The translations under genes and the position numbers were made by a program. Shown here piece by piece: positions 5,970 to 39,401 of a stretch of 49,446 nt of DNA (position 1 is its first letter; the number at the start of each line of letters is the position of its first letter). Source of the DNA: a virus (lineage: Duplodnaviria; Heunggongvirae; Uroviricota; Caudoviricetes); the IMG/VR virus record IMGVR_UViG_2563366799_000006; one strand, written 5' to 3'. Below the pieces are notes generated by a model, which was given only the letters and a program-made list of their open reading frames with translations, was not told where the DNA came from and made no database searches.

Positions 5970-6219
5970 GGTCTTTTCGGCTCTCGCTGCGATATCCCAG
6001 GCGGTACATTTTCACGTAGGCTTTGCCGCGAGGAATGCCGCCTGTTTTGTTGAATCTCTGCTGGGCGCGGCGATGGTGTTTTGCTTCAGGGCTGTTTGAA
6101 CCTTTCCCGCCATTCGATCGAGAACTTGGGAGTTGCATTGGCTTTTGGCGTGAATAGAATTTACGTGCCCAGCATGCTCCAAAGCCGATCATGCCTGTTT
6201 TCTTCGTATTACCTTTCAT
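5950..6219 (-). CDS. Small basic protein, first ORF downstream of the putative PL (N-like antiterminator candidate by position only)
   Basis: 89-aa ORF, GAGGGG RBS, Arg/Lys-rich; lies about 70 nt downstream of the predicted PL start. Confidence 0.4.
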   Translation of the reverse strand: MKGNTKKTGMIGFGACWARKFYSRQKPMQLPSSRSNGGKGSNSPEAKHHRRAQQRFNKTGGIPRGKAYVKMYRLGYRSESRKDLMRATQ

Positions 6220-6298
6220 CTCAATCCCCTCGTTTGCCCTTGTCGCCAGGCCAGCGGAACGTTTGAACTTGATGCGCTTAGTGTTTCTCGATGGGGTG

Positions 6299-6340
6299 AT
6301 GATAGCTAAGGCGATTTATTTTATCAATCGCTTAAACGAT
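6299..6340 (-). promoter_or_regulatory. Putative PL promoter with overlapping OL operator
   Basis: Minus strand reads TTGATA (6322-6327), 17-nt spacer, TATCAT (6299-6304); palindrome ATCGC-TTAA-ACGAT at 6327-6340 matches the OR operator consensus ATCGC-N4-GCGAT. Confidence 0.45.
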
Positions 6341-6663
6341 AATATTGTGATTTTGCCGATTATTATTTGATTTATAAAGTGATTTATTTTTGTATGAGAT
6401 GCGTGATATGCTCAAAAAAACACCAGGCGGGGATATTGATATGGGTTTAGGAATGGATATGTCACGTGATGAGCTGCTGGAAGATCGCGCTGCTTTCATG
6501 GCTGGCGAGATTGGCGGTGCAGTTGTCGAGTAGATAATCAACGGTGTGGTGATAAGTCGAGATGCGATAGTAGATAGCTTGGAGACTAAGCGTCGCGCGG
6601 TTGGAAATGTGATTCACAAAGGAGTGTTGTGGGATGTCACTGCTATGGTGAGAAAAGGAATAT

Positions 6664-6686
6664 GAAAACCGGCATAATGCCGGTTT
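6664..6686 (-). terminator. Hairpin terminator at the end of the cI operon
   Basis: Inverted repeat AACCGGCA-taa-TGCCGGTT followed by a T-rich run on the minus strand, overlapping the stop of 6685..7317. Confidence 0.45.
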
Positions 6687-7317
6687 ACTTTGATTTTTCC
6701 TGTTGGTGAAGTACTCGTGGAGTAGTTGGTTCTTGAGGTAATTGGATGATAACAGGTTGCTGCGCTACTGGTTGAACTACGGGCGGATCACTCTTCAAGG
6801 CAGAAACAAGACTAGGTAATGCAACGACAACCGCAATGATAACGCCAAAAATAGCAAGCCTAGTGGAAATACCTGATTGAATACCGCCAATCGCAGTGTT
6901 TATTCCTGTAATTTGCCCTTGTATACCTTCGAATTTGCCATTGATGGCTTTTACATCCCCATCAACGCTATCCATTTTCCCTTCAATTTTAGAAGAAATA
7001 GAGCTAATAGATGAATTGAGCGATGCCAGCTGAACGTTCATATTCTCGCGTGACAAAGCCATTTCAGCTCTAATCGAAGATGCAATGGACTCCATCTCCG
7101 CCTTATTGGCAGCTAGAAGTGCTTGCATTTCTTCACGGCTAACTGATGACATTTCATTTCCCCCATCAGTTTCATTAGCTTCATCTGTTGATTTGATAAA
7201 GTTAGTATACATTTCTTCTTTATCGACGCGTAGTCTGTTTTGAACATTGGGGTACAGGTCATCTTTATCAATGCCAGAACCGCAGTCTGGGACAGCTTTG
7301 AGAGATGGGCCCATCAC
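6685..7317 (-). CDS. Coiled-coil protein with a single C-terminal transmembrane helix (rexB/sieB position, no recognised family)
   Basis: 210-aa ORF; long heptad-like Ser/Ile/Gly-rich region then hydrophobic segment LAIFGVIIAVVVALPSLVSAL; start overlaps the stop of 7314..7700 (ATGA). Confidence 0.6.
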   Translation of the reverse strand: MMGPSLKAVPDCGSGIDKDDLYPNVQNRLRVDKEEMYTNFIKSTDEANETDGGNEMSSVSREEMQALLAANKAEMESIASSIRAEMALSRENMNVQLASLNSSISSISSKIEGKMDSVDGDVKAINGKFEGIQGQITGINTAIGGIQSGISTRLAIFGVIIAVVVALPSLVSALKSDPPVVQPVAQQPVIIQLPQEPTTPRVLHQQEKSK

Positions 7318-7700
7318 TTCCCATCCTCTCCTTGATCTTCTTTTCTTTTATTAATCAGTGTCCTGGCTTTTTTATAAGAAAAAAGCAGTACATGTGCGCA
7401 GTGATCACACGTGATTCGAAATAGTGGCATACCGCCAGGATATGTCACAGCACTATCAGTATCAGGTTTGTATTGTGCATAACTAAGTGTTTCGATCACA
7501 TGATGTTTTGGCTGATTTTCTTCTACATCAAGATCAAAGGCACCAACTACAGACCATGACTGGTTCCCGCAGATTTGGCAAGTTATTGGTTTTTTGAATG
7601 AATTTATGAAATCAATGAACTCATCCGCTGTGATAATCTCGGAGTTTGCTTCACTATGAAATAATTCCGATTTCATAATTATGATCCTTTTCTGGGCCAA
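7314..7700 (-). CDS. Zinc-ribbon-like protein (CQIC...CDHC), first gene downstream of cI (rexA position, no recognised family)
   Basis: ORF-track 128 aa; likely start is the ATG at 7674-7676 (120 aa) with AAGGA RBS; 20 bp downstream of the cI stop, same strand. Confidence 0.6.
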   Translation of the reverse strand: MAQKRIIIMKSELFHSEANSEIITADEFIDFINSFKKPITCQICGNQSWSVVGAFDLDVEENQPKHHVIETLSYAQYKPDTDSAVTYPGGMPLFRITCDHCAHVLLFSYKKARTLINKRKEDQGEDGK

Positions 7701-7720
7701 AGTAGATAAAAAGTACAGTT

Positions 7721-8404
7721 TTACAATCGGTTATACTTTATTGATTCATGAATCAATGCCTTACCCATTACGTAGAGTTGATCCTGATTACCTTCGTTAA
7801 TGTACCACTTCTCATAAGCTGAGTTATCAGACAAAACTGCCAACCTATCGCCCTGCATCTGCAAGCGCTTCACATGGAAATGTTGTCCGAAAACGAACGC
7901 ATAAACACCGTCGACCTTGAAGTTTCTTACAGAAATATCGAAAAACAATCTGTCACCAGACTGTATAGTTGGACACATGCTGTCGCCATCGACCGTCATT
8001 ACTTTTACGTCTTCCTGAGAACGATTTCCGAAGAGTGAACGAGCGTGTTCGGTTGTGAACTCAATGGCGTGTAGAACCTCAACAAACTCAGAAATCATGA
8101 AAGAACCTGGCCCCGCGCTAAATGTCAGGTCAAGTACGTCAACTCTGAATATGTTTGAGTCTTTTTTTGTCGCGGTAATGGGAGGCGGTAGCTGGCCATC
8201 GTTACGCATCGGTCCGGATCCCGTGGAAAGCCATTCAGGGCGAACATTGAGAACAGAAGCTATCTCGACCGTTTTTCTTGAGCTTGATGCACCATTTAGC
8301 AGCTTGTTAACACTTGACTGTGCCATGCCAACTGCCTTAGCTAGCTTGCCCTGTGTATAACCCGCCTCATTCATTGCGCGATCTAATCGCTCAGAAAAAC
8401 TCAT
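7721..8404 (-). CDS. cI: CI-type prophage repressor (XRE HTH + S24 LexA-like peptidase)
   Basis: 227 aa; N-terminal HTH (QGKLAKAVGMAQSSVNKL); Ala-Gly cleavage site (FSAGPG); Ser in GDSM and Lys in HVKRL; divergent from cro. Confidence 0.9.
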   Translation of the reverse strand: MSFSERLDRAMNEAGYTQGKLAKAVGMAQSSVNKLLNGASSSRKTVEIASVLNVRPEWLSTGSGPMRNDGQLPPPITATKKDSNIFRVDVLDLTFSAGPGSFMISEFVEVLHAIEFTTEHARSLFGNRSQEDVKVMTVDGDSMCPTIQSGDRLFFDISVRNFKVDGVYAFVFGQHFHVKRLQMQGDRLAVLSDNSAYEKWYINEGNQDQLYVMGKALIHESIKYNRL

Positions 8405-8437
8405 TAAAGATACCCCCTAATAACCTTCATAAATATT

Positions 8438-8506
8438 ATCGCCACAGCGATTAATAAGCAAAAAATCGCATAGGCGATTGACATTCGTTAAAGCGATAAA
8501 CATAAT
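8438..8506 (+). promoter_or_regulatory. OR operators and PR promoter
   Basis: Palindromes ATCGC-CACA-GCGAT (8438-8451) and ATCGC-ATAG-GCGAT (8466-8478); TTGACA at 8478-8483, 17-nt spacer, CATAAT at 8501-8506; AGGAG RBS and cro ATG follow. Confidence 0.6.
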
Positions 8507-8533
8507 CAACCTAAATTGATAGAAGGAGCGATT

Positions 8534-8764
8534 ATGAAAAACCCTGCTGTAGAAAAAGCGATTGCAATCGCCGGTAGTCAGAAAGAGCTAGCGAAGCGAT
8601 GTGGTAAGGCCCAATCCACGGTCTGTGACTGGTTAAATGGGAAAAAACAAATCTCCCCGATCCATGTTCCTGTTTTGGTAAAGGCAAGCGAAGGACAGAT
8701 TCAAGCTCATGAATTCCGTCCCGACCTTCCTGAATTGTTTCCGCATCCACATTCAGCCGCCTGA
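8534..8764 (+). CDS. cro: Cro-like HTH regulator (ORF track 8516..8764 uses an upstream TTG)
   Basis: ATG at 8534 with AGGAG RBS; HTH GSQKELAKRCGKAQSTVCDWLNGKK; divergent from cI. Confidence 0.75.
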   Translation: MKNPAVEKAIAIAGSQKELAKRCGKAQSTVCDWLNGKKQISPIHVPVLVKASEGQIQAHEFRPDLPELFPHPHSAA

Positions 8765-8795
8765 CCGGCGGCGCTAACCATCAAGGGAAAGCACT

Positions 8796-9071
8796 ATGCA
8801 ATCACTTACGTTTTACCAGGATACAGGATTGCCGCAGCAGGCGGTGATAAATCGTGCTCAAGCGTGCAAGGGACCTAGCCATGAAGATATTCGTGATGCC
8901 GTTCGCTCATGGGCGGGTGTAGATGGTCAGGATGTCGTTTCTGCTCTGATCATCGAAGAGTACCAGGCGCAGGGTGGTGATGACATCACTTTCCCTGATG
9001 ATCTCTGCCGAAAGCGCCAGAAGCTGTTTCGCTTCCTGGACAACCACTTCAACAGCGAGCGTTACCGCTAG
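8796..9071 (+). CDS. YdaT-like (cII-position) protein, N-terminal part ending at an in-frame amber codon
   Basis: 91-aa ORF ends at TAG 9069-9071; the same frame stays open to 9335; YdaT similarity is from memory. Confidence 0.5.
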   Translation: MQSLTFYQDTGLPQQAVINRAQACKGPSHEDIRDAVRSWAGVDGQDVVSALIIEEYQAQGGDDITFPDDLCRKRQKLFRFLDNHFNSERYR

Positions 9072-9152
9072 AACGTCCGCCAGCTGACTCCGGCAATCCT
9101 CGCTGTCCTGCCGATTGAATACCGCAATCGTCTGCTACCAGAAGACAACGTA

Positions 9153-9335
9153 ATGGCTCGTCTGGCAAGGCTGGAGAAGGAAACCAGCGAAGCGAAGATT
9201 GCTGTCGCAATGGATGCGCCACGTCATCAGAAGCTGAAAGAGTTGAGCGAGGGGATCGTGGAGATGTATCGCGTTGACCCTGGGTTAACCGGTCCGTTGA
9301 TGGAAATAGTGCAGATTATGCTGGGGGCTATATGA
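9153..9335 (+). CDS. Downstream part of the same reading frame as 8796..9071 (possible pseudogene fragment)
   Basis: Same frame as 8796..9071, separated by a single TAG; no convincing RBS before the ATG at 9153. Confidence 0.3.
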   Translation: MARLARLEKETSEAKIAVAMDAPRHQKLKELSEGIVEMYRVDPGLTGPLMEIVQIMLGAI

Positions 9336-9386
9336 CCGGTTCAAAAATGGCGAAAGCCGCGGTGCTCGAACACCAACGGCTTTCAG

Positions 9387-10328
9387 GTGCAAAAACAGTG
9401 CGTAATTGCGGAGAACAGTATGTCAAACACCGCTGAAATAATCAATTTCCCAAATAAAACCGAACAACCGGGAGGTCGTATGACCGACCTGTCGAACGGG
9501 TATACCAAGGTCGCTAACGAGATCCAACAGCTTAAGCCTCGCCTGAGACTGTCAGGCCGGGAATGGCAATGTTTTGAGGCGGTGATCTGGCTTACCTACG
9601 GCTGGAACAAGAAACAGGACCGCGTGACAAATACGGTTATTGCCGAGCTTACGGGCCTGAGCGATACGCATGTATCGGACGCGCTTAAGTCTCTCGCAGA
9701 ACGCAAAATCATCTTTTCACAGAAGCAGGGCATGATGAAAATCGTCGGTGTAAACACTGACCTTTCAGCATGGATTTTAGACAAACCGGAAACGGGAAGA
9801 AAATTCCCGAAAACGGGAAAATCCTTCCCGAAATCAGGAATAACCTTCCCGAAAACGGTAGACACCCAATACAAGAACAAGAACAGTATTAAAAGATCTT
9901 CGTCCGAGAATTCTGACGAATCCTCTGACGCACGTCTGAAGAAATTTTTATCAACTCATCCTGAAGCTGCGGTCTACACACCATCCGGTGCGAAGTGGGG
10001 CTCTGCTGAAGACCTCGAGACAGCTAAGTGGATTTCCTCCAGGGTGAAGCTGATTAACCCAACCTGCAAAGCCCCGGACATGACCTCCTGGTCTAACACT
10101 GTTCGCCTGATGCGCCAGATAGACAACCGGTCGCACCAGGACATCTGCGCGCTGTATGACTGGGCTAGCAAACACCACTTCTGGCAGACCAACATCCTGA
10201 GTCCCGAAAGCCTGCGTAAGCAGTGGGACAAGCTGACAATGCAGCGTAACGCCGGAGGTGAGCAGCGCGCTGTCAAGCCAGATCTGGACTTCAACAACAC
10301 TGACTGGGCCTATGGGGTGATCCGATGA
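9387..10328 (+). CDS. O: Replication initiation protein O (phage_rep_O family)
   Basis: 313 aa; GTG at 9387 or ATG at 9420; N-terminal motif REWQCFEAVIWLTYGW...LTGLSDTHVSDALKSL; ori iterons inside the gene; stop overlaps the P start. Confidence 0.85.
   Translation: MQKQCVIAENSMSNTAEIINFPNKTEQPGGRMTDLSNGYTKVANEIQQLKPRLRLSGREWQCFEAVIWLTYGWNKKQDRVTNTVIAELTGLSDTHVSDALKSLAERKIIFSQKQGMMKIVGVNTDLSAWILDKPETGRKFPKTGKSFPKSGITFPKTVDTQYKNKNSIKRSSSENSDESSDARLKKFLSTHPEAAVYTPSGAKWGSAEDLETAKWISSRVKLINPTCKAPDMTSWSNTVRLMRQIDNRSHQDICALYDWASKHHFWQTNILSPESLRKQWDKLTMQRNAGGEQRAVKPDLDFNNTDWAYGVIR
9786..9861. repeat. Origin-of-replication iterons (about four ~20-bp repeats, core TCCCGAAAACGGGA)
   Basis: Repeats at about 9786, 9805, 9825 and 9845, each with internal dyad TCCCG-N4-CGGGA, followed by an AT-rich stretch to about 9905; located inside O as in lambda. 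Confidence 0.6.
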
Positions 10329-11014
10329 AATCTCTTGCAGAGCAGATGCGTAACCACGACCGCGAGCAGATGAGCCGCATGGCCCATAACCTGCCAGAGC
10401 AGTACCAGGAGTGCGCGCCGGTCGAGCAGGTGGCGCAGGTATTCAACAAGCTGTTCAACGAGCTGCGCGCCGCGTTCCCGGCCAGCATGGCGAACTTCCG
10501 CACCCAGGAAGACCTGAACGAATTCCGCCGTCAGTGGCTGCTGGCGTTTCAGGAGAACGGGATCCACACCATGGCTCAGGTCGATGCCGGCATGCGCATT
10601 GCCCGCCGCCAGGAGCGCCCATTCCTGCCGTCGCCGGGCCAGTTCGTCGCCTGGTGCAAGCAGAGCGGCGGCGCGCTGGGCGTCAACGTTGACCAGGTGA
10701 TCGCCGAATACTGGGACTGGCGTAACCGCTCGTTCGAATTCATCTCCAGCGAGCAATTTCCATGGTCGCAGCCGGTCATGTACCACATTTGCGTAGAATT
10801 GCGCCACCGCAGCACCGAGCGCCAGTTAACGCATGGTGAACTGGCACGCGAGGCAGGCGATCTGCTGGACATGTGGGAAAGGCGCGTCACCGAGGGTAAG
10901 CCAGTGCCGCCGGTACGCCGGGCTATTGCCGCACCAGCTGCCGAGCAAGGGCCGACGCCGATCCAGCTGCTGCTGGCCAAGTACAACCGCAACAAGTCGA
11001 ACGGGATGGTGTGA
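10325..11014 (+). CDS. P: Replication protein P (helicase loader, lambda P-like)
   Basis: 229 aa; recalled similarity to lambda P (REQM.R.A.N.PEQY, VAQ, FPAS.AN, RRQW.LAF.ENGI.TM.QV.AGMR.ARRQ.RPFLPSPGQFVAWC). Confidence 0.9.
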   Translation: MKSLAEQMRNHDREQMSRMAHNLPEQYQECAPVEQVAQVFNKLFNELRAAFPASMANFRTQEDLNEFRRQWLLAFQENGIHTMAQVDAGMRIARRQERPFLPSPGQFVAWCKQSGGALGVNVDQVIAEYWDWRNRSFEFISSEQFPWSQPVMYHICVELRHRSTERQLTHGELAREAGDLLDMWERRVTEGKPVPPVRRAIAAPAAEQGPTPIQLLLAKYNRNKSNGMV

Positions 11015-11015
11015 C

Positions 11016-11360
11016 ATGAACATAACAATCCGTGAGCAGGTGCTGGCAGCCCTGCGCAACAACCCAGGGTTGAACAACGCCAAACTGGCAGGGCTTATCG
11101 GCATGGACACCAAAAAGATATCCGGAACGGTGAGCACGCTGCTGGCAGACGGCCTGATCCGCTGCGAAGGAAAATACGGCCAGCGCCTTTACAGCCTGAC
11201 CAGCTACGGAATGCGCTTCGCCCCTGACACGATACCTGGCATGAAGCAGGGTAAGTCGAAGTTAATTCAGCGGACGGACACAAACGTGATCTGCCAGGAG
11301 TGCCGCAACAGCGCGGCGATGAGAAGGGTATTGATGGTTTGGGGGAGGGTAGGGGTATGA
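11016..11360 (+). CDS. Hypothetical winged-helix-like DNA-binding protein
   Basis: ATG at 11016 (ORF track extends to 10833 in the same frame); 114 aa. Confidence 0.45.
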   Translation: MNITIREQVLAALRNNPGLNNAKLAGLIGMDTKKISGTVSTLLADGLIRCEGKYGQRLYSLTSYGMRFAPDTIPGMKQGKSKLIQRTDTNVICQECRNSAAMRRVLMVWGRVGV

Positions 11361-11554
11361 AAATCGAAGATATCAAAAACGTCGCGGTGTTCTTCAATAT
11401 GAACGGCAAGACAGTAGCGTTACGAATGGATGCTGAGCAGAAGCGGATCGTCGCATTAATGGCGCTTAACACGGCTGATGCTCGGGCAGAACTGATTGAA
11501 GTGCCGCACATGACTTTACCAGCAGACCCAGCCATGGAGGAGGCCGCCCAATGA
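11357..11554 (+). CDS. Hypothetical small protein
   Basis: ATG at 11357 (MKIEDIK...) after a G-rich RBS; ORF track extends to 11300. Confidence 0.45.
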   Translation: MKIEDIKNVAVFFNMNGKTVALRMDAEQKRIVALMALNTADARAELIEVPHMTLPADPAMEEAAQ

Positions 11555-12096
11555 GCAACATCGACAAACGTGGATTACGGGAAGCAGCGGAGAAGGCGAC
11601 GAAAGGCCGGTGGGCTGTTGAGTTCGACGATGAGATTTACTCCACTGACGGCGTGAACCATGAGCAAATAGCCATGGTATTCAGTGAAAACGAAGCGCGT
11701 GATGCTGCATTTATCGCCGCAGCCAACCCCGCCACCGTGCTGGCGCTGCTGGATGAGCTGGAAGCCGCAGAGAAGCGCATAGCAGAACTGGAGGCGCGTT
11801 CATTCAATCCAGCAATTCTGGATGTGGTAGCCGAACGTCAGCGGCAACAGTCGGTTGAAGGATGGACTCCTGAACATGACAACGCATATCAAAATAGCGA
11901 ATTAGCAGATGCAGCGGCTTGTTACGCAATTCATGCGCACAACCAAGGTTTCTCCACTCCAGCACATTGGCCGTGGTCGCCTGATTGGTGGAAGCAATCA
12001 GGAGCACGCTGCGACTTGGTAAAAGCTGGCGCTCTTATTCTGGCAGAAATTGAACGCATTGACCGCGCCGCTGGCATTGGCGTGAAGGGGGAATGA
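11551..12096 (+). CDS. Ead/Ea22-like family protein
   Basis: 181 aa; N-terminus MSNIDKRGLREAAEKATKGRWAVEFDDEIYSTDG recalls Ead/Ea22-like prophage proteins. Confidence 0.55.
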   Translation: MSNIDKRGLREAAEKATKGRWAVEFDDEIYSTDGVNHEQIAMVFSENEARDAAFIAAANPATVLALLDELEAAEKRIAELEARSFNPAILDVVAERQRQQSVEGWTPEHDNAYQNSELADAAACYAIHAHNQGFSTPAHWPWSPDWWKQSGARCDLVKAGALILAEIERIDRAAGIGVKGE

Positions 12097-12097
12097 G

Positions 12098-12475
12098 ATG
12101 GCACTGACGAAAAAACAGCGTGCAGAACTGCGCATGAAGTTTGGCGGTCGCTGTGCTTATTGCGGCTGTGAACTTGGCGATAAGTGGCATGCAGACCATG
12201 TAGAAGCGGTACGAAGAAATATCAGCAACGGCTACGCAATGGACAGGCCAGAAAATGACACGGTCAGCAACATGGTTCCAGCATGCATTCCATGCAACTT
12301 GTTCAAAATGTGCAGCACAGTAGAAGACTTTCGCAGCCGCATAGCCACTCAGGTTGATGTAACTCGCCGTGCGTCAAGAAGTTACCGCACAGCGGAATCA
12401 TTTGGCCTGGTTAAACAGACTAACGCACCAGTTGTGTTCTGGTTCGAGCGGTATCAAGAGGGGGATAACTTGTGA
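12098..12475 (+). CDS. HNH endonuclease
   Basis: 125 aa; CAYCGC...HADH...CIPCN zinc-finger/HNH motif. Confidence 0.8.
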   Translation: MALTKKQRAELRMKFGGRCAYCGCELGDKWHADHVEAVRRNISNGYAMDRPENDTVSNMVPACIPCNLFKMCSTVEDFRSRIATQVDVTRRASRSYRTAESFGLVKQTNAPVVFWFERYQEGDNL

Positions 12476-12690
12476 CCAAAATGTTCCTGAAGAATTATCC
12501 GCGCCAAAGCCGTGTTAAAGAGGCTCTATTTTTCCTTCTCTTTCTTATTTTAATGATTCCAATATCACCGATAGTCCTCATCTGGTTAGCAGGAGAACAG
12601 GCAGAAAAGATAGCTGAGTGGTATAGCTCCATCGTATGGGGGCCATTTAACAAACTGCACAACAAATTAAATCCGTACAGGGAGGACTAA
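12472..12690 (+). CDS. Small hydrophobic membrane protein
   Basis: GTG at 12472 overlapping the HNH stop, or ATG at 12481; hydrophobic core LFFLLFLILMIPISPIVLIWLAG. Confidence 0.45.
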   Translation: MTKMFLKNYPRQSRVKEALFFLLFLILMIPISPIVLIWLAGEQAEKIAEWYSSIVWGPFNKLHNKLNPYRED

Positions 12691-12693
12691 CCC

Positions 12694-13146
12694 ATGACAA
12701 CTAACAACCACCCGGCGCACGGTCCTGTATCACTCGATCGCCTGCACCAGATAAGCGAAATACTCAGCAACGCAGCAGCACAAAGCGACGGCGGTAATCT
12801 CGGCTATGCAATGGCTGATGCTGTGAAGGTGATTGATGGAGTTCTGGAGTCGATGGCCCGTGAGCAAGTACGCCGTGAGCATGCTACATGGTCACAGGCT
12901 ACTTTCGGCGATGTCGGTCCAGTTGGTCCGCTGAAGCACCTTTCCAAAGAAGCGCTCGAGGCGGCAGCTGAACCAAGTGACCTTACCGAATGGGCTGACA
13001 TGCAATTCCTGTTATGGGATGCGCAACGTCGTGCCGGTATCAGTGATGAGCAGATTACCCTGGCGATGGTAGAAAAGTTGGCGGTTAACAAACAGCGCGA
13101 ATGGCCTGAGCCGAAAGATGGTGAGCCGCGTCTGCACATCAAGTAG
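12694..13146 (+). CDS. Hypothetical protein, possibly MazG-like nucleotide pyrophosphohydrolase (DUF550-like)
   Basis: 150 aa; recalled resemblance to prophage dATP/dGTP pyrophosphohydrolase-domain proteins. Confidence 0.45.
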   Translation: MTTNNHPAHGPVSLDRLHQISEILSNAAAQSDGGNLGYAMADAVKVIDGVLESMAREQVRREHATWSQATFGDVGPVGPLKHLSKEALEAAAEPSDLTEWADMQFLLWDAQRRAGISDEQITLAMVEKLAVNKQREWPEPKDGEPRLHIK

Positions 13147-16341: not shown

Positions 16342-16595
16342 TGGGCTGCCTCATTGTAAGCGGAATCAAGTTTTACGTTCTGGCAGAAGGTGACTCATAT
16401 CCCGATCCGCATAATGATAATCGGTATGTCGGTGCATATGCCGTATTCCCGTTTGAGGGAAAGTGGGTTGCTCAGAAGTATTTCAGGGGAGGACGCTGGA
16501 GTGATATCACCGAACGCCGATTTAACACTGAAAACGAGGCATTCAACTTCACATACGAATACGCGTTTCTCCCGGAAAACCGCTACAAATATTAA
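16341..16595 (+). CDS. Hypothetical protein
   Basis: 84 aa; start overlaps the previous stop (TAATG). Confidence 0.5.
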   Translation: MGCLIVSGIKFYVLAEGDSYPDPHNDNRYVGAYAVFPFEGKWVAQKYFRGGRWSDITERRFNTENEAFNFTYEYAFLPENRYKY

Positions 16596-30976: not shown

Positions 30977-31330
30977 ATGGCAATCGACTATCGCCGCATG
31001 CGCGCGACCGCGACCCGACTGCTGACCGAGAACGGGAAGGCATATCAGCTTACCCGCGGCGGCGGCACCATCCGTGACCAGTTCGGCAAAGAGGTCACCA
31101 CCCCGGCCATTACCGCGACCGTAACCGGTGTTATCACCGAATACTCCTCCCGCGAAATCGACGGTTCCCTGATCGCCACCGGCGACAAGAAGCTGGCGGC
31201 CACTTTCGAGACGGAAGTGCGCATCGATGACCGCATCGAAATCGACGGCAAAAAATGGCGCGTGGTGCAGCCGAATCCGGTTAAGCCTGCCGATGTGCTG
31301 ATTTCCTACAACATCCAACTGAGGGCGTAA
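30977..31330 (+). CDS. Head-tail module protein (hypothetical)
   Basis: 117 aa; start 2 bp after the previous stop. Confidence 0.5.
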   Translation: MAIDYRRMRATATRLLTENGKAYQLTRGGGTIRDQFGKEVTTPAITATVTGVITEYSSREIDGSLIATGDKKLAATFETEVRIDDRIEIDGKKWRVVQPNPVKPADVLISYNIQLRA

Positions 31331-34059: not shown

Positions 34060-37000
34060 TGACAGACCAGATCGCCTCGATTACTTTGCGGGCCGATGTT
34101 TCTGACCTGAAAACAGCCAGCAACGAACTGGATAAACTCGGCCAGGCGGCGGCCGGTGCTGTAGATAAAGCGGATGATTTAAATAGCGTGTTCCGCGCTG
34201 GGGCTGAATCTGCGAAGCAAGGCAGCGAAGGACTCAAGGAGCAGCAGAACGCGCTCAAAGGGCTGCTGGAGAATATCGACCCGGTTACCAAGGCCTTAAA
34301 CCGCCTGGATGAGCAGCAAGAATCGCTGCGGAAATTCCAGGCCAAAGGTTTCCTGGATACCGATACCTTTCAGGCATACAACAAAATCCTGGATGACACC
34401 CGCCTCAAGCTGACCGACACCGGAGAAGCCGCGGCGCGTGCTCAGGCCGAATTAGCCGCTACCCAGGCGGCAGAGAAGCAGTCCGCAGCGTTAAAGAACC
34501 TTCTTGGATCCATCGACCCGACTATCCGCGCGTTCAATTCGTTGGATGAACAGCACGCACAGCTGGTGGAACATTTCGAAGCTGGGCGCATTAACGGTGC
34601 TCAGTTCGAGCACTTCAACACAATCCTTAACCAGACGCGTGAGCGCCTCTCTGGTGTCGCTGACGTACTACCAGAGGCGCTATCCCGGCAGGAAGCTGCT
34701 GCCCGGCGCGCTGGAATCTCCGTTGGTCAGTACAGCGCAGCAATGCGCACGCTTCCGGCGCAATTCACCGATATCGCCACGCAGCTGGCTGGCGGTCAGT
34801 CGCCGTTCCTGATTCTGCTGCAACAGGGCGGGCAGATTAAAGACCAGTTCGGCTCGGTTCAGGGGGCGCTGTCCGGCGTCGGCGAATACATCCGCAGCAT
34901 GGCTGGGATGATTAACCCTACCACAATCGCACTTGGTGGGCTGATTGGCACGATCGGCCTGCTGGCTGCCGCAGCGTATAACTCCTCGGAGCAATTTGAG
35001 CAGGTGGCACGCTCTGTCATCATGATGGGTGGGGCTGGCTTCTCCTCAATGCAGCAGCTCAACCAGGCCGCTGAGGAAGTGGCTGGCAAGACGAATACAT
35101 CGATTAGCTCCACCGTCGATACGCTGGTTACGTTGAACGATACTGGCAAATATACCGCAAGCCAGATGAAGCAGGTCGCAACGACCATCACCCTCATGGG
35201 TAAGGCCGGAAATGATACCAAAGCGGCAATAAGCGACTTCGGAAAGATTGTCAGCGATCCGGTTAAAGGGCTTGCCAGCCTCAATGAACAATATGGTTTC
35301 GTTGATGAAGCCATGATCAAGCACATTATCCAGCTACGTAAGCAGAAGGGTGAGCAGGCGGCTGTTACCGAAGCTATTGAGCTGTTTGCAGGCGTCATGG
35401 CAAAGCGCGCAGAGGAGACCAACAAAGCGACCGATAATATCGGTCAAACGTGGGAAAACCTTAAAAAGAGCGCTTCTGACACCTTTGGCGATATAGGTAT
35501 TACCGTGCGCGCATGGGGAAACCAGATCATTGATATTTTCGAACTGGTTAAATCCTCGATCAAAGACTTGTTCCTCAATATCACCTCTCTGGACGCCAAG
35601 TTCACCAGCACCATCGCTGGCTGGGCAGACAAAATCCCGGGTGGCGGTGCGCTGGCTAATTTCCTCGGCATGGACGTTGAGGCAATGAAAAAGGCTGGAG
35701 CGGAGGCGGACAAAGAGATTGAGGCGAACAAAAAACGCTATAACGAGCTTTGGAAGCGCGTCACTGCGCCTAACGCACAGGCAAACTATGAGGCTGAAGC
35801 GCGAGGGTCTAACGTAAAAGGTGATGGAGGAACAAGTCGAGAATCAAGAGACGCAGTCTCGAAGCTTGCACAAGACTCAGCCAAAAAGACCAAAGAGGCA
35901 AAAGCCACGCTGGATGCTGGCGATCGCACTCTTGAGAACTACCGCGCCCAGGCCAGAACGTTAACTGAAACACTCGAAACGTTGCGCAAGACTGGGGAGA
36001 CTCAGGTCAGATATACCGAGTTCAGCAAACAGCAATCCCATTTTGCCGAGCTGGACGAGGCTGCTAAGACCCGCGCGCTGACCGCACAGGAGAAATCTCT
36101 TCTATCGAACCGAGAGGCCATCCTCAACGCCGCCAAAGTTGTGGATCAGAAAAATAAGGAAGTCGAGGCCCAGCAGAAGATTAACGGCCTGGCGCAGCAG
36201 GCAAATAAGTATGTTACGCAGATGACTGAAAAGTCTGAGGCATTGCGTAGCGGGGCTGGGTTAAGTAGTCGCATGGCCCAGCGAATGACCGAAGAGGCGC
36301 AGCTTCGGCAGGGCTGGCTAAATGGCGGTGGTAATCTAGAGGATGCTGGCTACGAGAAAGAGCTGGCAGCTCTTCGTAACTACTACGCCGAAGAGGATAA
36401 GCTACGGGGTGACTGGAAAGCAGGGGCAGTTAGTGGCTGGAATGAATATCTTGAGGCCGCCACGAATACCTATGACGCCGTGAAGAACGTCGCCAGCTCC
36501 ACGCTGACCGGCTTGAGCGACATGCTGACTGAGCTGATGATCACTGGCAAAGCATCAGTTAAAGAATTCGGTAAATCCATGCTCAAGATGATCCTGGATG
36601 TTACGAACCGCCTCATGGTTGCCTACGCAGTGCAGGCCGCAATGGGATGGGTAAACGGAGGGGCAGGAGGTGGCAACACACCCGGTGGAGCATACGCGAA
36701 CGCTGCTGCAGGCGTAACGTTCAACGCTAAAGGCGGAGTCTATGAATCGCCGGGCCTAAGCAAGTATGTGAATGGCGTCTACGATTCTCCTCAGTACTTC
36801 ACGTTCCAGGGGGCATCTAAGTTTGCGAAAGGGGGGGTCTTTGGAGAGGCAGGGCCGGAAGCTATTATGCCGTTAGCTAAAGATTCAGCAGGGCGGTTGG
36901 GTGTACGCGCCCAAGGAGGTGGAAGTATTGCTCCTGTAATTAATACCGTCATTAATGTTGAGGCTAATGGTAATGTATCAACCAGCACATCGTCGGATGG

Positions 37001-39015: not shown

Positions 39016-39038
39016 TAACCCGCTTCGGCGGGTTTTTT
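39016..39038 (+). terminator. Intrinsic terminator (second of a tandem pair)
   Basis: AACCCGC-ttcg-GCGGGTT followed by TTTTTT. Confidence 0.65.
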
Positions 39039-39050
39039 TATGGAGCAAAT

Positions 39051-39401
39051 ATGGCCGTTGAAACATACAACTGGCGATCTCAGCTCGGGGCTGGCGCGAT
39101 TGAATATAGTCAAACGGTGCGTGCTGCGCAGTTTGGCGATGGCTACGAACAGGTGGCCGAGAACGGCATCAACTCCACGGCGATCCAGGTGCCAATGAAA
39201 CACGTTGGCAGTGAGTCTGAGGTAAACGCAGTGCGCGACTTCCTCCTGGCTCATACCGTTAAAGCTTTTATCATCACGCCGCCCGGCGAAGCGAAGGGGC
39301 TTTATCGGGTAGTCGCCGATTCCGTACGGAAAAATCAGATCAGCAGCAAGTTTGCTGAGCTGACGTTCACCATCAAACGGGCTTACGGAGTGTATGCATA
39401 A
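39051..39401 (+). CDS. M: Minor tail protein M
   Basis: ATG at 39051 with GGAG RBS (ORF track extends to 38898); FGDGY motif shared with lambda M; gene order M-L-K-I-J. Confidence 0.7.
   Translation: MAVETYNWRSQLGAGAIEYSQTVRAAQFGDGYEQVAENGINSTAIQVPMKHVGSESEVNAVRDFLLAHTVKAFIITPPGEAKGLYRVVADSVRKNQISSKFAELTFTIKRAYGVYA

Follow-up and report, generated by a model that had tools for sequence, protein, structure and literature searches.

Phage phi80 has been studied since the 1970s, and its replication origin belongs to a textbook class. Grosschedl and Hobom in 1979 and Moore et al. in 1979 and 1981 reportedly compared the origins of lambdoid phages, phi80 included. In the accessible full-text literature we found no paper describing the phi80 iterons themselves; the GenBank record JX871397 annotates four 'protein_bind gp15' features in phi80 gene 15 ('replication initiation protein 15; similar to lambda O').

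[quoted passage not shown] Each iteron is occupied by an O dimer, and in O a flexible linker joins the DNA-binding domain to the domain that binds P (PMC6022878). The lambda record contains four 18-bp iterons, which start at positions 39034, 39054, 39078 and 39101 of that record (range 39034-39118) and are spaced by 20, 24 and 23 bp. In Shiga-toxin phages, two extra iterons add 13 residues to O in frame (PMC7466680). P27 and 933W, two Shiga-toxin phages with origins of the same class, have six iterons, the number varying in frame; their iterons and their O N-domain are both of the lambda type and not of the phi80 type. Plasmid origins with Rep-family initiators (pSC101, R6K, P1 and F) work alike, through phased direct repeats, a cognate initiator and an AT-rich unwinding element.

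Here we analyse a repeat array in IMGVR_UViG_2563366799_000006, a stretch of 49,446 nt (the window, to which all coordinates refer unless stated otherwise). Judged by their sequence, the repeats almost certainly constitute ori-phi80, a replication origin placed within the initiator gene of a phi80-type lambdoid module. The element as such is already known (GenBank JX871397 and X13065), with its sites annotated in the former record. Mildly new, and descriptive, are a quantification of DNA-level over protein-level constraint, the arithmetic behind a peptide repeat encoded by the array, and a set of natural variants.

Architecture of the origin and its initiator gene

The array lies in frame within a plus-strand ORF (9420-10328) that encodes a lambda O-type initiator of 302 residues from the ATG at 9420 and is equivalent to phi80 gene 15. 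The predicted protein matches PF04492 (Phage_rep_O; 2e-24) and TIGR01610 (3e-40), and across its entire length shares 39% of its residues with lambda O (BLASTP, E=1e-65). Its N-terminal origin-binding domain, of the winged-helix type, spans residues 23-118 (9486-9773, plus strand), with limits taken from TIGR01610 and PF04492. Directly downstream, a lambda P-type helicase loader equivalent to phi80 gene 14 is encoded on the same strand (10325-11014; PF06992, 2e-49), and both the O and the P ORF are intact. Pfam searches with O returned no plasmid Rep family, the matches being Phage_rep_O and a sub-cut-off HTH_Crp_2 (19.8 bits against 27). The absence of a Rep family rules out membership in the plasmid Rep/iteron origins, to which the resemblance is in working mode only; plasmid origins depend on another initiator family, whereas here the origin is inside the coding sequence of its initiator and the helicase would be loaded via a P-type protein. 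Among solved structures, O had no informative relative, its sole match being weak and to an HTH entry (5zr4, E=0.009). A single-sequence AlphaFold2 model of O was poor (mean pLDDT 38.9), and DSSP assigned it no secondary structure at 112-168, at low reliability.

A segment of 221 bp that includes the array (9740-9960) is 100% identical to phi80 (JX871397) and to mEp237. The gp15 sites of JX871397 were transferred to the window by exact string mapping and fall precisely on 9784-9798, 9804-9819, 9825-9840 and 9846-9860. This base-for-base identity, together with the coinciding sites, identifies the element as ori-phi80 itself. The O gene as a whole is 99.7-99.8% identical to those of phages mEp237, phi80 and HK225; relative to phi80, it differs by one nucleotide (9483, giving T22A) and the P gene by four.

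The array comprises four 16-bp units (9783-9861) at an exact spacing of 21 bp, with the consensus TTCCCGAAAACGGGAA, hereafter the 16-mer. The units start at 9783 (AAACCGGAAACGGGAA), 9804 (TTCCCGAAAACGGGAA), 9825 (TTCCCGAAATCAGGAA) and 9846 (TTCCCGAAAACGGTAG), and in the 21-bp register (9783-9866) they are followed by GAAAA, AATCC, TAACC and ACACC, respectively. Iterons, AT-rich tract and right arm are all described without strand. Iteron 1 (9784-9798, AACCGGAAACGGGAA; JX871397 gp15 site 36663-36677) has a perfect right half-site and a degenerate left one, and its unit carries four mismatches to the 16-mer, of which three fall in the left half-site and the fourth in the central spacer. This degenerate form is kept in relatives and, given its poor match, may be bound weakly or not at all. 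Iteron 2 (9804-9819; gp15 site 36683-36698) is a perfect dyad without mismatches to the 16-mer. Iterons 3 (9825-9840; gp15 site 36704-36719) and 4 (9846-9860, TTCCCGAAAACGGTA; gp15 site 36725-36739) belong to units with two mismatches each, all in the right half, which reads CGGTAG in iteron 4 of nearly all relatives.

The array is not a product of chance and stands far above expectation. The 16-mer has five matches in the window at up to three mismatches, against 0.57 expected, and none of 100 shuffles reached this number. Three of the five are inside the array, unit 1 being missed at this threshold because of its four mismatches. In a scan for tandem signals with periods of 6 to 60 over the whole 49-kb window, the strongest signal was the lag-21 self-match at 9783, where 45 of 63 positions agree (window mean 17.2, sd 4.0, z ~7). 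The two matches outside the array (16446-16461, two mismatches; 31023-31038, three mismatches) were judged to be chance occurrences, since two are found where ~0.6 are expected and each is isolated, with no array around it. The site at 16446-16461 (TTCCCTCAAACGGGAA, minus strand) also resembles a lambda iteron.

On its right the array adjoins an AT-rich tract (9862-9897; 69% A+T over 36 bp), a presumed unwinding element that is biased towards A on the top strand (20 A against 5 T) and aligns with the AT-rich region of lambda. Positions 9868-9897 within it form the richest 30-mer of the gene (77% A+T) and rank at the 99.6th percentile of the window (top 0.4%). The tract contains a tandem hexamer, AAGAAC AAGAAC (9873-9884), that is highly conserved among relatives. 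It is followed by the right arm (9898-9929), which contains an imperfect palindrome around GAATTC, encodes an SSENS-ESSD linker and is common to lambda-type origins; positions 9899-9929 are 100% identical to several lambda-like phages and align with lambda just to the right of its AT-rich region.

These results bear on a first-pass annotation of the same DNA, which had proposed about four iterons followed by an AT-rich stretch, all inside O as in ori-lambda. The location in O is borne out by the reading frame, the two family matches, the similarity to lambda O and the P homologue downstream, and the AT-rich stretch is found at 9868-9897. Four units at 21 bp agree with the number proposed, but the perfect dyad TCCCG-N4-CGGGA, which had been ascribed to each of them, is present in unit 2 only. 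The match to phi80 had gone unrecognised; the exact sequence was already described in the phi80 record.

Compared with ori-lambda, the element has the same order of parts (iterons, AT-rich tract, right arm) at the same place within the initiator gene. Both origins share the iteron polarity TCCC..AAAA..GGGA, an AT-rich tract biased towards A on one strand and a nearly identical right arm (TTCGTC-GAGAATTCTG-CGAATCCTCTGAC). In both, O consists of an N-domain, a linker and a C-domain that binds P, and the P gene is located downstream. However, the iterons differ in sequence and length (TTCCCGAAAACGGGAA here, ATCCCTCAAAACGAGGGA in lambda), and their spacing is exactly 21 bp instead of 20, 24 and 23 bp. 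The O proteins are only 39% identical, and a different origin specificity from that of lambda is therefore expected. On these sequence features, namely a dyad iteron array in the O gene, an AT-rich tract, the O domains and a P gene, the element can be assigned to the lambdoid O/P-type origin class.

Constraint on the DNA sites and on the encoded peptide

Relatives were taken from viral contigs (the best 80 of 408 stretches encoding a relative) and from a set with one genome per species, which contributed 27 loci (Enterobacter, Citrobacter, Klebsiella, Kluyvera, Pectobacterium, Xenorhabdus, Morganella, Pantoea and others). Column entropy was computed over 35 distinct sequences from many Enterobacterales. 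With one exception, which has five units, every intact relative carries four units spaced by 21 bp and, after them, the same A-rich tract; the four-unit array is kept in prophages of the first seven genera named above and of others.

The region coding for the winged-helix domain (9480-9782) has the variability pattern usual for protein-coding DNA, with entropies of 0.24, 0.10 and 0.98 bits at codon positions 1, 2 and 3, whereas the origin is without codon periodicity. The corresponding values are 0.40, 0.29 and 0.36 bits in the iteron array and 0.25, 0.34 and 0.26 bits in the AT-rich tract, where the three positions are equally conserved (58-67% of columns invariant). Four-fold degenerate sites have an entropy of 1.22 bits in the domain region, with 0% invariant (n=48), compared to 0.28 bits and 60% invariant in the origin (n=15); the difference (Mann-Whitney p=4e-7) is, like the other conservation statistics, indicative only, as shared ancestry and recombination among the 35 sequences are ignored. 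Conversely, codon positions 1 and 2 together are more variable in the origin (0.33 bits) than in the domain (0.17 bits), and the domain retains 91% amino-acid identity to the window, against 75% for the peptide that the origin encodes. Within the array, entropy is 0.15 bits in the half-sites, 0.41 bits in the central (A/G)AA(A/T) spacer and 0.93 bits in the 5-nt spacer between iterons. The half-sites and the AT-rich tract are under purifying selection at the DNA level. Read from these substitution patterns, the comparison shows selection acting on the DNA sites themselves, with the peptide apparently a passive layer. The locus is a clean, quantitative example of a gene in which a DNA element overrides evolution at the codon level.

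The translated ORF contains PETGRKFPKTGKSFPKSGITFPKTV, the peptide that the first-pass annotation had read from the repeats. Its repeat, (T/S)G-x-x-FPK, arises because the 21-bp unit amounts to seven codons read in frame. Lambda O has no clean repeat because the uneven iteron spacings, two of which are not multiples of three, shift the frame; this arithmetic explains why a peptide repeat is visible in the phi80-type origin, unlike that of lambda. The repeated peptide falls between the two domains of O and would correspond to the segment that, in lambda O, has been called a flexible linker. The coupling between DNA site and linker that had been suggested for these repeats is fully accounted for by this arithmetic and holds only in the trivial sense that the two codes overlap; the comparative data place the constraint on the DNA sites and leave the peptide passive.

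That the repeat exists for the protein, with a tandem heptapeptide (FPKTGKx)n selected in the O linker and the DNA dyads incidental, would account for a repeat of exactly seven codons in frame and for the recurrence of P, K and G in every unit. We nevertheless consider this extremely unlikely and reject it on the pattern at synonymous sites: most four-fold sites in the units do not vary, yet substitutions occur at non-synonymous positions (F to L, K to E, T to S and, in Morganella, G to V). The lower identity of the peptide than of the neighbouring domain and the missing codon periodicity of the segment also argue against it, as does lambda O, where iterons at spacings of 20, 24 and 23 bp occur without a clean peptide repeat. 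It is likewise improbable, with a small chance of being right, that the heptapeptide repeat is more than purely passive, such that site number and initiator reach co-evolve and the basic FPKTGK contacts DNA. Gain or loss of one iteron does change the O linker by seven residues, because the spacing equals seven codons, as exemplified by the five-iteron relative described below. If the repeat had such a role, the Pro/Gly-rich FPKTGK might touch the AT-rich tract or single strands within the O-some.

Two further readings were considered. The half-sites could be paired as three CGGGAA-N5-TTCCCG sites (9793-9809, 9814-9830 and 9835-9851), the single unit being CGGGAAGAAAATTCCCG instead of the N4 unit TTCCCGAAAACGGGAA; the element would still be an origin, with another geometry of O binding. 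A repeat search does return these sites as 17-18-nt inverted repeats (I2, I4), and half-site centres 11 bp apart would also suit a dimer. We regard this pairing as highly unlikely, given that the N4 spacer is conserved within and between genomes, whereas nothing in the array varies more than the N5 spacer. The pairing also leaves unexplained a conserved left-type half at the start of the array and a right-type half at its end, and both the polarity shared with lambda iterons and the units annotated in the phi80 record agree with N4. The half-sites and the N4 spacer are conserved and the N5 spacer is free, and TTCCCG-N4-CGGGAA is therefore supported as the unit. The dyads could alternatively be RNA or DNA hairpins that serve to terminate leftward (antisense) transcripts intrinsically or act as a cruciform signal, a reading to which we attach only a very low probability. 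In a consensus scan, the minus strand of iteron 2 scores as terminator-like, with a stem of 6 bp and then TTTTCTT, and the single strand 9775-9935 folds better than shuffled versions (z = -3.8). However, any array of dyads gives such extra foldability automatically, and the stems are just 5-6 bp long. A Rho-independent terminator at iteron 2 was rejected because its T-tail falls in the non-conserved spacer between iterons, where relatives are not T-rich (e.g. AAGTC or AAACC on the plus strand) and no U-run is conserved. An Rfam scan of the whole window matched no RNA family, and the reading as an RNA element is therefore unsupported. A replication origin fits the finding of four phased copies, their half-sites conserved, beside an AT-rich tract and within the O gene, and we retain it as the preferred reading.

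Natural variants of the origin

Several relatives depart from the common form. The viral contig IMGVR_UViG_3300013612_000006 has five iterons, an extra in-frame 21-bp unit (TTCCCGAAATCAGGAATAACC) adding seven residues to its O, which is comparable to the variation in iteron number of P27 and 933W. In Morganella morganii H1r (69% protein identity), at least three units are symmetrically changed to TTACCG-N4-CGGTAA, and the N-domain carries a few substitutions, e.g. D87N. The symmetric change fits the prediction of recognition by a symmetric dimer, and on sequence grounds the locus is a candidate for a natural switch of origin specificity. Its peptide has Val in place of Gly because of the altered half-sites, the DNA code dragging the peptide along. 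In Kluyvera genomosp. 3 YDC799, a deletion of 1 nt in iteron 2 frameshifts O and leaves an ORF of 146 aa, presumably in a decaying prophage.

The right edge of the origin (9899-9929) is a module junction (loci L109 and L004). In L109, from Pectobacterium, an unrelated C-terminus of 268 aa follows directly after the AT-rich tract. [quoted passage not shown]

Predicted initiation and the surrounding phage

By analogy with lambda, dimers of the O-type initiator would bind the four dyad iterons (consensus TTCCCG-AAAA-CGGGAA) via the N-terminal winged-helix domain, whose coding region lies just upstream of them. A spacing of 21 bp corresponds to two helical turns and would place the iterons on one face of the DNA, along which short A-runs recur at about helical-turn intervals (9790, 9800, 9810, 9818, 9831 and 9852). 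The AA autocorrelation is modest (0.19 at lag 10, 0.26 at lag 21) and largely a consequence of the 21-bp repeat. The nucleoprotein complex so formed, the O-some, could then stress and open the adjacent A-rich tract (9862-9897), to which the C-terminal domain of O would recruit P-DnaB; host chaperones would release DnaB, and replication would start. Rightward transcription from a pR-like promoter would pass through the origin, as in lambda. Dimer binding, bending, unwinding, helicase loading and the dependence on rightward transcription are all predicted here from what holds for lambda.

A putative promoter of this kind is located at 8478-8506 on the plus strand (TTGACA-17-CATAAT, 11 of 12 consensus matches), upstream of a cro-like gene, and by its consensus match probably drives the rightward transcription that would cross O and the origin. 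Genes upstream of O encode a LexA-like CI repressor of 227 aa (7721-8404, minus strand), a YdaS-like Cro (8516-8764) and a YdaT-like cII homologue of 180 codons (8796-9338). Codon 92 of the cII-like gene is an in-frame TAG (9069-9071), where mEp237 has GAA and phi80 GAG; this lysogeny-establishment gene is therefore nonsense-interrupted, as an amber allele or a pseudogene. The intergenic region between cII and O (9340-9419), in which phi80 has the oop-like M3 RNA, matches mEp237 rather than phi80.

While the origin shows no difference from that of phi80, the phage around it does, including an immunity region with the CI of 227 aa and the YdaS-like Cro. The window is a mosaic lambdoid phage or prophage, similar in its early region to mEp237, HK225 and phi80 and in its structural genes to HK639. 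Genes for recombination, replication and late regulation resemble mEp237 and HK225 (across roughly a third of the first half, at 91-93% identity), those for head and tail HK639 (85%), and those for tail fibre and invertase mEp237 and phi80. Placing the replication specificity of this mosaic phage as phi80-type is of value for its annotation, and predicts origin compatibility, incompatibility and O/P complementation with phi80, mEp237 and HK225.

Of the complete E. coli genomes, a single one covers 80% or more of positions 6000-13000. The same origin is present in 123 of 5,426 such genomes (~2%), in 105 of them at 99% identity or more, and the right-hand part of the query alone is matched in ~2,450 of the 5,426.
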